This document shows positions 11,380-24,371 of a stretch of DNA of 64,000 nucleotides, piece by piece (within the stretch, counting starts at the first letter, position 1; each line of letters starts with the position of its first letter). Under the pieces are notes generated by a model, which did not search any database, was not told the origin of the DNA, and was given only the letters and a program-made list of their open reading frames with translations. Made by a program: the position numbers and the translations under genes. The DNA is from Parcubacteria group bacterium (GTDB lineage Bacteria; Patescibacteriota; Minisyncoccia; Moranbacterales; UBA11712): contig JBAZXV010000001.1 of the NCBI GenBank assembly GCA_041659685.1, positions 178,771 through 242,770 of the forward strand, given 5' to 3'.

Positions 11380-11521
11380 TTTCCCTGTTCGATTGTGGGT
11401 GGAGAGGGATGCAAACATCGCTGCTGCGCTCCTTGAAACCCATCGGTTTCAATACTTCCGCCGCGGGAAAACTCCCGTTTTCCCGACCCCTTTCCCTGTT
11501 TGATTGTGGGTGGAGAGGGAT
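11380..11521. repeat. 31-nt direct duplication of the tRNA-Tyr 3' end/trailer bracketing an 80-nt insert
   Basis: tttccctgtt[c/t]gattgtgggtggagagggat occurs at 11380-11410 and 11491-11521 with one mismatch. The second copy overlaps the T-arm/acceptor 3' half of tRNA-Tyr. Confidence 0.85.
11405..11491 (-). ncRNA. candidate structured RNA / miniature element, copy 1
   Basis: On the minus strand there is a closing helix AGGGGT/ATCCCT. Hairpin 1 is GGGAAAAC-GGGA-GTTTTCCC (GNRA loop) and hairpin 2 is TTGAAACC-GATG-GGTTTCAA. A homologous copy lies at 23823-23911. Confidence 0.45.
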
Positions 11522-11589
11522 TCGAACCCCCGTAGCCCGAAGGCGCCAGATTTACAGTCTGGTACAATTGACCGCTCTGTCATCCACCC
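11507..11589 (-). tRNA. tRNA-Tyr (anticodon GTA), long variable arm, no encoded CCA
   Basis: Hand-folded cloverleaf: acceptor GGGTGGA/TCCACCC, anticodon stem CCAGA/TCTGG with loop CTGTAAA, variable arm GCGCCTTCGGGCTAC and T-arm GGGGG-TTCGAAT-CCCTC. Confidence 0.9.
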
Positions 11590-11602
11590 ATGTTCAATTT
11601 TG

Positions 11603-11675
11603 AGCCATCCATCGGAGTCGAACCGATAACCTACTGTTTACAAAACAGTTGCTCTGCCAATTGAGCTAGGATGGC
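11603..11675 (-). tRNA. tRNA-Thr (anticodon TGT), no encoded CCA
   Basis: Hand-folded cloverleaf: acceptor GCCATCC/GGATGGC, D-arm GCTC-AATTGGCA-GAGC, anticodon stem ACTGT/ACAGT with loop TTTGTAA, and T-arm ATCGG-TTCGACT-CCGAT. Confidence 0.9.
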
Positions 11676-23691: not shown

Positions 23692-23746
23692 ATCAAAATG
23701 ACTCTGGGCGAATCGTGCAATAAGCGCTTTTGATTCATTCAGAAAC

Positions 23747-23776
23747 AAAAAAGGCCCGTCTTTCACGGGCGTTTTT
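23747..23776. terminator. bidirectional rho-independent terminator
   Basis: An A-run, GCCCGT-CTTTC-ACGGGC, then a T-run, between convergent transcription units. Confidence 0.7.
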
Positions 23777-23822
23777 ATATATAGTCAAATGGCAAGAGCA
23801 AGAGCTATTATTTCTTCCATTG

Positions 23823-23911
23823 AGGGATCGCTCCGCCAAACGGCGACGCTCCTTGAAACCTTGCGGTTTCAATTCTTCCACCACGGGAAAACTCACGTTT
23901 CCCCGACCCCT
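23823..23911 (-). ncRNA. candidate structured RNA / miniature element, copy 2 (between rpsI stop and terminator)
   Basis: On the minus strand: AGGGGT ... GGGGAAAC-GTGA-GTTTTCCC ... TTGAAACC-GCAA-GGTTTCAA ... ATCCCT. The helices match copy 1 and both loops are GNRA here. Confidence 0.45.
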
Positions 23912-23933
23912 TTCCGCCCTTAATGTCAGGAAG

Positions 23934-24371
23934 CTATCGCTTTTTCCATTGAGGGGCGCGTCTGGCTTTTTTAAGGCCTGACTTCTTTCTCTCAACCACT
24001 CTTGCGTCTCTTGTTAAATATCCAAGATCTCTCAGGGGTTTTCGCAGCGATTCATTAAAAATGACTAACGCTCTTGCTACTCCAAGCCTGATTGCCTCCG
24101 CCTGCCCCCTTATTCCGCCTCCTCGAACAATAACGGAAGCATCGAACGAAGCTGTTTCCTGGACACTTATCAAAGGAGCAATGGCCGTATCGCGCAGTTC
24201 TACGGGACCAAAAAAATCATTCAGTTTGCGGCCGTTAACGATAAATCCTTCGTGAGAAGATTTCTTTTCATCCAAAGCAAAAAGCCTCACCTGGGCCACA
24301 GCAGATTTCCGTCGTCCGATACCCTTATAATACTTCGTCGGTTTCTTCTTTTCTTCTTTTTTTTCCGGCAT
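23934..24371 (-). CDS. rpsI: 30S ribosomal protein S9
   Basis: GIGRRKSAVAQVRL, GGGIRGQAEAIRLGVARAL and a C-terminal KKARRAPQWKKR. Confidence 0.95.
   Translation of the reverse strand: MPEKKEEKKKPTKYYKGIGRRKSAVAQVRLFALDEKKSSHEGFIVNGRKLNDFFGPVELRDTAIAPLISVQETASFDASVIVRGGGIRGQAEAIRLGVARALVIFNESLRKPLRDLGYLTRDARVVERKKSGLKKARRAPQWKKR

Follow-up and report, generated by a model that had tools for sequence, protein, structure and literature searches.

Two related elements behind tRNA-Tyr and rpsI

The stretch of DNA analysed here, hereafter the window, comprises 64,000 nucleotides from a Parcubacteria group bacterium (assembly GCA_041659685.1, contig JBAZXV010000001.1, positions 178,771 to 242,770 of the forward strand), and it carries two copies of a short hairpin-rich element on its minus strand, one directly behind a tRNA-Tyr gene and the other behind rpsI, which encodes ribosomal protein S9. 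A first-pass annotation, made from the sequence alone, had picked out this pair, and both copies were found where it had placed them; the adjacency to tRNA-Tyr and rpsI, which it did not mention, proved to be the most informative feature of the two loci. In a repeat search of the window the 69-nt block 11427-11495 is 88% identical to 23847-23915 and forms the largest direct-repeat family present, the pairwise alignment being gapless over the first ~70 nt and diverging in the third arm. Locus 1 is built as follows.

11602-11675, minus strand: tRNA-Thr(TGT), just upstream of tRNA-Tyr (ARAGORN; Rfam tRNA)
11506-11589, minus strand: tRNA-Tyr(GTA), the host gene (ARAGORN; Rfam tRNA)
11491-11527, minus strand: left direct repeat GTTCGAATCCCTCTCCACCCACAATCAAACAGGGAAA (repeat search)
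11427-11498, minus strand: conserved core of copy 1 (covariance model R1; fold)
11496-11491, minus strand: linker GGGAAA, within the core
11490-11485, minus strand: junction strand GGGGTC, within the core
11485-11464, minus strand: hairpin 1 (fold)
11463-11453, minus strand: junction CGGCGGAAGTA, within the core
11452-11433, minus strand: hairpin 2 (fold)
11432-11427, minus strand: start of the third arm, GGAGCG, within the core
11417-11432, minus strand: variable third arm GGAGCGCAGCAGCGAT, where the two-copy alignment diverges
11380-11416, minus strand: right direct repeat GTTTGCATCCCTCTCCACCCACAATCGAACAGGGAAA (repeat search; direct-copy score 26.5)

The left repeat runs from the T-loop to the 3' end of tRNA-Tyr and on through a 15-nt trailer, and the right repeat is a copy of the same tRNA 3' end (its last 22 nt) and trailer, in which the T-loop has changed from TTCGAAT to TTTGCAT. 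The two are 37 nt long, 34/37 identical (92%) and spaced by 111, and the locus amounts to ~1.3 tandem units. The trailer, AATCAAAC-AGGGAAA, resembles the T-loop complement and linker of the family described below. The core of copy 1 begins 16 nt past tRNA-Tyr on the same strand, which is the placement of the tRNA-linked repeats (TLRs) of E. coli. Locus 2 has the same order of parts around a protein gene.

23934-24371, minus strand: rpsI, the host gene (ribosomal protein S9, C-terminus ...ARRAPQWKKR; list of open reading frames (ORFs); Pfam PF00380 Ribosomal_S9 on an identical protein)
23936-23934, minus strand: rpsI stop codon TAG (sequence)
23932-23955, minus strand: left repeat CCCTCAATGGAAAAAGCGATAGCT (local alignment of the flanks)
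23917-23925, minus strand: inverted copy CATTAAGGG (read from the sequence)
23847-23918, minus strand: conserved core of copy 2 (R1)
23910-23905, minus strand: junction strand GGGGTC, within the core
23905-23884, minus strand: hairpin 1 (fold)
23883-23873, minus strand: junction TGGTGGAAGAA, within the core
23872-23853, minus strand: hairpin 2 (fold)
23852-23847, minus strand: GGAGCG, within the core
23827-23852, minus strand: third arm GGAGCG-TCGCCGTTTGGCGG-AGCGAT (fold, sequence)
23803-23826, minus strand: right repeat CCCTCAATGGAAGAAATAATAGCT (flank alignment)
23745-23775, minus strand: intrinsic terminator of the rplM-rpsI transcript, GCCCGTGAAAGACGGGC then a T run (terminator scan)

Here the left repeat consists of the last six rpsI codons, the stop codon and 2 nt, and the right repeat is a decayed direct copy of this 3' end, stop codon included (19/24 identical). 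Between the gene and the core lies an inverted copy, which reads as CCCTCAATG reverse-complemented with a single mismatch and leads into the linker CGGAAA at 23916-23911; an inverted host copy is comparably placed in ~75 other loci among the matches listed. The third arm holds a 5-bp hairpin within GAGCG...CGAT. The core begins 23 nt past the rpsI stop codon and, since the terminator at 23775-23745 lies downstream of the element, copy 2 sits inside the rpsI 3' untranslated region. Its host is a protein gene and not, as for TLRs, a gene for a stable RNA, and so are the hosts of at least 10 more S9-linked and 3 L33-linked copies.

In each copy the fold consists of two hairpins of 8-9 bp and a third arm that varies, at -36.9 kcal/mol (copy 1) and -42.4 kcal/mol (copy 2), with z = -3.4 and -4.1 against shuffled sequence. 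The first-pass annotation had described two 8-bp hairpins and a variable arm, and it was right about the loops (GGGA/GTGA in hairpin 1, GATG/GCAA in hairpin 2) and about the change of an A-U to a G-U pair in hairpin 1 between the copies. Its stress on GNRA loops holds for hairpin 1 of both window copies but not across the family, where ~40% of the copies have GGGA, GGTA, GGAA, GTGA or GAAA and others have loops such as ATTT, TCTA or ACTT. The extent it gave, 11405-11491, is too small: with its framing repeats, locus 1 extends over 11380-11527 and locus 2 over 23803-23955. Its closing helix AGGGGT/ATCCCT is likewise not conserved in the family: the ATCCCT strand belongs to the duplicated upstream gene (the T-loop and T-stem of tRNA-Tyr at locus 1, rpsI codons at locus 2), and in the family it is the inverted and the direct copy of the host 3' end that pair to close the element.

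The resemblance between the two minus-strand copies is real and far beyond chance. An 18-nt signature, AAAGGGGTCGGGRAAACG, occurs exactly twice in the window against 0.22 occurrences expected by chance, and R1, a covariance model built from the core alignment of the family and run over the whole window with filters off, returned just these two copies (93.1 bits with E = 3e-24 for copy 1, 91.7 bits for copy 2, next-best score 16 bits). ARAGORN and the Rfam tRNA and transfer-messenger RNA (tmRNA) models, applied to the window loci, called the two true tRNAs (57.6 and 68.6 bits on the Rfam tRNA model) and not the element, and under both gathering and E-value thresholds Rfam gave nothing at the two copies other than these neighbouring tRNAs. 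We took a match to IMES-2 (19 bits, E = 0.007), located across the end of rpsI, to be spurious. A chance likeness, or a degenerate array of terminators, would suit a hairpin-rich region at gene 3' ends, yet it is at odds with the 88% identity over 69 nt, with the signature count, with R1 scores above 90 bits, with hundreds of homologues and with the lack of T runs after the hairpins, and we regard it as effectively excluded. The first-pass annotation had named a hit to a known Rfam family, a failure to find further covarying copies, and a degenerate terminator array as outcomes that would speak against a new element; none of the three was observed.

A family spread through the Patescibacteria

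Species-representative genomes were searched with a pattern derived from the core, GGGGTCGGG N10-18 CCCGNGGNGGAAG, which matched at least 119 stretches, nearly all of them in Patescibacteria (Saccharibacteria, many Parcubacteria/Paceibacterota, Berkelbacteria, Kazan and Doudnabacteria); the five matches in other phyla, among those listed, lack hairpin 2 and are due to chance. A second pattern, applied to metagenomes and not demanding the 5' motif, yielded at least 120 more. All family counts given here are lower bounds, and conservation at the positions specified by a pattern is partly imposed by the search. Even so, GGGGTCGGG was kept in 72/91 canonical metagenome copies although the pattern did not ask for it, its variants being mostly single changes (GGGATC, GGGGCC, GGGGAC, GGGGTT). 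R1 recovers 103 full copies in 98 loci and, among the matches listed, only three of these fall outside the strict pattern, so the core sequence is tightly conserved. In all, the pattern scans added more than 200 copies to the two of the window.

Genomes carry between one and five copies, among the matches listed, and 9/10 within-genome pairs are less alike (identity 0.49-0.81) than the best cross-genome matches (up to 0.97), the pair in L062 being the exception. Such old copies in low number fit maintained genes better than a recent burst of transposition. Contigs that code for the identical S9 protein break off within the element or turn chimeric there, which is a sign of a repeat. Three of them illustrate this: L001, L002 and L003 all encode the identical S9 protein, L001, from the same organism, stops inside the element, and L003 continues from the 5' half of the core into a different third arm and on into the 3' end of another tRNA, GATTCCCACCGAACCCACC, which probably reflects a chimeric assembly at a third copy carried by this genome. 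Among the contigs with identical S9, a search for an empty-site allele gave none for either window locus.

In viral contigs we found no genuine copy; the sole pattern match there was a chance one in GC-rich coding DNA, and carriage by phages was dropped as an explanation. A literature search turned up no description of the Patescibacteria motif. The uS9/uS2-linked RNA of bioRxiv 10.64898/2026.09.15.751765, reported mainly from Bacteroidota and in a different gene context, was not equated with it.

Selection on RNA structure and a permuted form

In a model-based alignment of 115 matches, 97.5% of the cells in the stems of hairpins 1 and 2 (P1 and P2) are standard pairs, 13/17 pairs have changed on both sides, and 0/500 shuffles reach any of the observed measures. 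The pairing signal collapses if the partners are slid by one to three columns, and in P1, read on the host strand, G-U outnumbers A-C by 9 to 2. Selection on RNA structure, proposed in the first-pass annotation from two copies, is therefore well founded, and of its alternative labels, a novel structured RNA or a miniature mobile element, the first is supported: there is no sensible Rfam match, the family has more than 200 further copies, and both hairpins covary. The second label is not supported, in that neither shared terminal inverted repeats nor a fixed target duplication were seen. The novelty is also partial, for the element is absent from Rfam but its plan is already that of the E. coli TLRs (PMC8144298).

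A circularly permuted form of the core, 5'-[N5-7 CCCCCG]-UGGAGGAAGG-NNU-P2-AGA(C/U)-GGGGGUC-[CGGGGG N'5-7]-3', was found in five distinct metagenome loci among the matches listed. Opened at its loop, P1 turns into the terminal stem of the permuted form, the outer part of which covaries between loci, and a 4-nt link, AGA(C/U), stands in place of the host-derived closing stem. The form stands in L135, L205, L220 and L233, and is nested in a canonical copy in L132 and L223. Since the permutation preserves the junction, it is what would be expected of a folded functional RNA and not of a DNA recognition site. The permuted copy in L220 is again flanked by a direct repeat, AGCGACCC[A/G]TGGCAGTTCAAGAA. 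Rfam, run on three permuted copies, returned no model match.

These properties invite the reading of the core as a catalytic RNA, perhaps a small self-cleaving ribozyme of a new class, whose task would be to trim the read-through trailers of tRNA and r-protein transcripts or to define unit-length RNAs. The core is compact (~60-70 nt) and combines two covarying stems with near-invariant purine-rich junctions and variable loops, a GUC triplet stands directly 5' of P1, several copies occur, including in tandem arrays (L143), and a circularly permuted form exists, as in hammerhead and twister. Permuted forms are found just as well in aptamers and protein-binding RNAs, no conserved pseudoknot or cleavage-site signature was identified, and no Rfam model matched: a scan of both window copies and three permuted copies with the hammerhead, twister, twister-sister, pistol, hatchet, hairpin and hepatitis delta virus (HDV)-like models, at E up to 10, gave at best 13.7 bits (E = 5.2), for the hairpin ribozyme with its gathering threshold of 65, and a trivial 18-nt match to twister-sister. 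To our knowledge the junction sequences are unlike every known ribozyme consensus. We consider a ribozyme improbable.

A frame copied from the host gene

Over the genome and metagenome sets together, ~60% of the copies among the matches listed follow a tRNA or tmRNA on the same strand: ~75 of ~113 genuine copies in the genome set, with the tRNA or tmRNA ending 16-125 nt upstream, and 57/110 in the metagenome set. Among the matches listed, the host tRNAs span ~35 anticodons and tmRNA is the host in two loci (genome set), rpsI is the host in 8 genome and 3 metagenome loci, and rpmG (L33) in 3; occasional other hosts are PGK and a large protein ending GWAKF. All copies are co-oriented with the host. 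The last of these hosts, in L102, L174 and L178, is an orthologous protein of 1100-1400 aa ending ...IIGNF(T/Q)(E/Q)IFGWAKF, whose last codons (TGGGCAAAA...TAG) resemble those of S9 (PQWAKR), a likeness possibly due to a sequence preference or to microhomology transfer between hosts.

The order of parts is constant. The host 3' end is followed by a trailer, often with an intrinsic terminator, then by the inverted host copy and the linker RGGAAA; next come the junction strand GGGGUC, which is almost invariant across the family, P1, G-YGG-NGGAAG, P2, AG, an optional variable hairpin (P3, often GCGAAGC) and finally the direct host copy. At tRNA hosts the cargo-side end of the inverted copy always complements the start of the T-loop (...GGAAUCGAAC) while its far end varies, and the direct copy extends from the T-loop to the discriminator base and beyond. 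The 12-nt T-stem and acceptor strand is matched with <=2 mismatches in 56/73 tRNA-linked loci, the median inverted-match score is 11 for tRNAs with a core and 6 for tRNAs without, and the closing stems folded from the two copies measure 10-23 bp.

The right direct copy is 13-105 nt long and often takes in the trailer and the terminator, and since the repeats span these parts the duplication is an event at the DNA level. In many loci the host terminator is itself copied in the right repeat, which creates a dual-terminator layout. At their maximal reach the direct repeats stop at the boundary of linker and core (L039, L084, L042, L074 and window locus 1), and tandem arrays of 1.3-3 units occur in L074, L084 and L143. 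Behind rpsI, the direct copies match each lineage's own rpsI sequence.

Several other origins of this frame were considered and set aside. An origin of the 5' flank as a minihelix left by internal deletion fails on the non-palindromic T-loop TTCAAAT, which appears as ATTTGAA (L007, L077), so that the inverted copy must be a genuine reverse complement. We also rejected a primer-binding site like that of retroviruses, and a copy of the mature tRNA, as CCA is not enriched in the direct copy (gained relative to the gene in 3 loci, the reverse in 3 loci) and TGG does not stand at the start of the inverted copies. In the genome set 10/56 host tRNA genes encode CCA; most others have the discriminator base, CA and an A-rich trailer, and the direct copy usually keeps the discriminator base and that CA, then diverges. 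The 5' flank consensus GGAAUCGAAC-AGGAAA resembles the 5' ends of tmRNA, also in its two-piece form, but is the complement of the T-loop; the permuted-tmRNA model reached 10.6 bits on the window, where neither ARAGORN nor Rfam called a tmRNA. A peptide-coding role, by analogy with tpr inside RtT, was discarded: there is no conserved ORF, and the stems change by compensatory substitutions.

Direct repeats that run from the T-loop to the tRNA 3' end and beyond, with tmRNA also in use, recall the target sites of tRNA integration, and the flanks could accordingly be attL/attR scars of a T-loop-integrating element with the core as a leftover attP arm. Only ~75-110 bp separate the repeats, though, and no integrase lies near: the neighbouring ORFs in the window encode a ClpB-like AAA+ protein, S9/L13 and a PEGA-like protein. 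The same core with matching repeats behind ~35 tRNAs and protein genes is more than a site-specific integrase can account for, and the covarying stems and the permuted form point to selection at the RNA level. This origin is very improbable, to the point of being effectively excluded.

The same inverted and direct frame surrounds unrelated cargos behind other tRNAs of the same genomes, namely in L004 (tRNA-Ser), L018, L078, L090, L094 (tRNA-Val), L057, L075, L042, L104 and L022, and the frame is therefore more general than this core. One such cargo family reads GCCGGAG...GGGGTCGCG-hairpin-GTGACC, and there is at least one further family. All cargos meet the direct copy at GUGA opposite the GAAC of the inverted copy, which from the sequence could form tandem G.A/A.G pairs.

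A frame of this kind is what a selfish, non-autonomous duplicative cassette might leave behind. A trans-acting enzyme, or template switching, would place copies of its conserved cargo at the 3' ends of highly transcribed genes, the target 3' end being duplicated and snap-back synthesis that starts on the cargo-proximal side making the inverted copy, and the RNA structure would serve the copying step and not the host. The DNA-level direct repeats agree with this, including trailers and terminators over their 13-105 nt and stopping at the linker/core boundary. So does the inverted copy, whose fixed cargo-proximal and variable distal ends are those expected of primed copying; together with repeats that stop at the core, they suggest primed fold-back copying from a staggered break or a cDNA. 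Unrelated cargos in one host-derived frame fit as well, as do the diversity of hosts (~35 anticodons, tmRNA, S9, L33, PGK and the large protein), the tandem arrays in L074, L143 and L084, and the match of the copies behind rpsI to their own lineage's rpsI. The E. coli repeat rrB, which lies behind 5S rRNA, still carries the T-loop complement GCGGATTTGAAC, as if it had moved there from a tRNA. Against such a cassette stand the absence of a transposase, integrase or reverse transcriptase beside any copy whose neighbours were examined, within-genome copies (1-5 per genome) more diverged than cross-genome matches, and a core conserved throughout the phylum, unlike that of typical miniature inverted-repeat transposable elements (MITEs); no empty-site allele was found and viral contigs held no genuine copy. 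We regard this account as a real possibility, though a doubtful one.

Other arrangements of the core

An extended subtype without a tie to tRNA occurs in L011, L028, L035, L041, L110, L136, L153, L206, L207, L210, L212, L215, L230 and L239. Conserved hairpins, TGTCTCCCTT-AGGAGGGAG-TACCCGTAAAAAG-GCTTTAGCC, precede the core and GCAAATCNCATTTGC-GACGGGGGAGGGTGGA follows it. The copy in L041 has a type I restriction hsdR gene on one side and a Fic-domain gene on the other; compared between loci, the neighbours of the extended subtype are not conserved, and nothing was found when these L041-type loci were run against Rfam.

In L139 and L184 the core, preceded by a terminator and a promoter-like stretch, has a complete tRNA-Arg(TCG) directly behind it and is thus part of a 5' leader instead of a 3' trailer, with a closing pairing of only 5 bp (GGCGT/ACGCC). 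Some copies carry conserved modules of 50-100 nt inside hairpin 2: one insert, GGGCGAC...GGAAGTACTCTTGTGGTGTTTCC, is found in L046, L116 and L121, and another, ...GGTGTACNGCTTCTGTAAGAAG..., in L095 and L104. A module related to the latter is a stand-alone cargo behind tRNA-Arg in L042, which points to nested or modular cargo.

A proposed trailer-borne RNA cassette

We hold with moderate confidence that the two window copies belong to a widespread Patescibacteria family of structured RNA cassettes borne on the trailers of other genes, of the kind represented by the E. coli TLRs. The unit would share the transcript of its host, a highly expressed gene of the translation apparatus, with read-through wherever a terminator stands between the two, as is the case for rrB (PMC8144298). 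The inverted and direct copies would pair in the transcript to form the closing stem, with the core as the head of a three- or four-way junction on a long hairpin, and the unit might then come free, or be stabilised, as a small RNA. Signals of the host for 3'-end processing or termination would recur in the direct copy, and the nearly invariant junction strands may be the functional part, through the binding of a conserved protein or ligand or through catalysis. The placement of copy 2 upstream of the operon terminator is the one positional observation in favour of TLR-like co-transcription.

A number of observations weigh against the trailer-borne cassette. At both window loci the closing stem that the host copies can form is short (~5 bp, CAAAC/GTTTG, at locus 1 and 8/9 bp at locus 2), and RNAfold prefers a GGGGUC:GAUCCC pairing over it in both copies, a pairing that these two particular copies may use. 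Many loci have an intrinsic terminator between host and element, so that transcription needs read-through. In L088 and L089 the inverted copy fits the host gene better than it fits the direct copy, which hints at pairing with the host RNA itself and not at a simple closing stem. A search for a linked protein partner gave nothing shared among the ORFs around L041-type copies, and no CsrA-like ORF was found in the window. A purely functional account falls short of a DNA-level duplication of up to 105 nt that includes trailer and terminator, and the trailer-borne cassette leaves the origin of the inverted and direct host copies unexplained.

A broader proposal is that the host-derived frame marks a general templated copying process, that the core is a new class of catalytic or ligand-sensing RNA, or both. 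The process could be retro-like snap-back, or staggered cleavage with fold-back priming, at work in Patescibacteria and Proteobacteria alike, and it would set small structured RNA cassettes behind the genes with the highest transcription; the RNA class would be tied to the output of the translation apparatus. We put this forward as speculative and rather unlikely. If true, the copying process or the new RNA class would explain what tRNA-linked repeats are.

Comparison with known systems

The self-cleaving ribozymes hammerhead and twister share with the element multi-stem junctions of 50-80 nt, invariant junction nucleotides, variable loops, natural permutants and repeated copies; the difference is that no Rfam ribozyme model matches the element.

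With MITEs, and with the repetitive extragenic palindromic (REP), enterobacterial repetitive intergenic consensus (ERIC) and Correia elements, it has in common that it is short (~100-150 bp), non-coding, hairpin-forming, multi-copy and intergenic, has direct-repeat flanks and breaks metagenome contigs. It differs in that its inverted repeats are copied from each host gene and are not element-specific, in that its direct repeats vary between 13 and 105 nt where target duplications have a fixed 2-10 bp, and in its low copy number, old within-genome copies, phylum-wide core and covarying stems. The recent burst typical of a MITE is not seen, the 64 kb of the window holding 2 copies.

The closest likeness is to the TLRs, which were first described in 1978 (Egan and Landy 1978; Rudd 1999) and have no established function or origin (PMC8144298). 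E. coli has 22 TLR units at ten loci in tRNA and rRNA operons, among them RtT/rttR behind tyrT-tyrV (RF00391) and rrA, rrB and rrF behind 5S rRNA; their hallmark is that the last 18-19 bp of a unit, at its 3' end, are the same as those of the gene upstream, and rrB arises by read-through between the terminators T1 and T2, with processing at the repeat (PMC8144298). Both families lie directly behind a stable-RNA gene on the same strand, and in both the 3' end of the unit repeats that of the upstream gene, here 22 nt of tRNA-Tyr and the trailer. In both the closing stem consists of inverted and direct host copies, as in the Rfam RtT consensus with its GGGGAAGGAU/AUCCUUCCCC pairing and the tail CACCACCA; tandem partial units occur (3.14 in tyrT, ~1.3 at window locus 1), as does a dual-terminator layout (rrnB T1/T2), and GCGAAGC mini-hairpins and the T-loop-complement motif GGAUUYGAAC ahead of the cargo are shared.

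Behind E. coli tyrV (L123) each 178-bp unit holds GGGGAAGGAU...UUCGACC, which is the tRNA-Tyr 3' end in reverse complement with an interruption, and ends in CUGAGUAAUCCUUCCCCCACCACCA, and the Rfam RtT consensus pairs both segments as the closing stem. The rrfB unit (L245, NC_000913.3 4171719-4171960) lies between T1 and T2, with its cargo after the T-loop complement GCGGATTTGAAC; it contains GCGAAGC and GGCCCGGAGGG and ends in an 18-nt copy of the 5S rRNA 3' end. Its sequence gives the impression of a unit that originated at a tRNA locus and had only the 3' copy adapted to the 5S host. Its GCGGATTTGAAC, GCGAAGC and GGCCCGGAGGG resemble the second Patescibacteria cargo family.

The two families differ in having no homology by sequence or model: the RtT model gives 13 bits (E = 9, 11397-11474) against a gathering threshold of 45, where the E. 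coli RtT units themselves reach 133-137 bits, and R1 gave no match in the E. coli RtT region. The core GGGGUC-P1-GYGGNGGAAG-P2 is confined to Patescibacteria, whose hosts include tmRNA and protein genes (rpsI, rpmG and others), with copies taken from the mRNA 3' end, and only the Patescibacteria family has a circular permutant, a few copies in tRNA 5' leaders and an explicit inverted host copy.

Through this shared architecture the window links the E. coli TLRs to a much larger and deeply conserved family in Patescibacteria. In minimal genomes a retained, multi-copy non-coding sequence is unlikely to be junk, and the element, a candidate for a new Rfam entry, causes assembly breaks in metagenome bins of the candidate phyla radiation (CPR). 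Beyond what the E. coli repeats offer, the family has hundreds of diverged covarying copies, an invariant junction that can be mutated, a permutant and mRNA hosts, and through it both the role of the RNA and the origin of the host-matched frame become directly testable.

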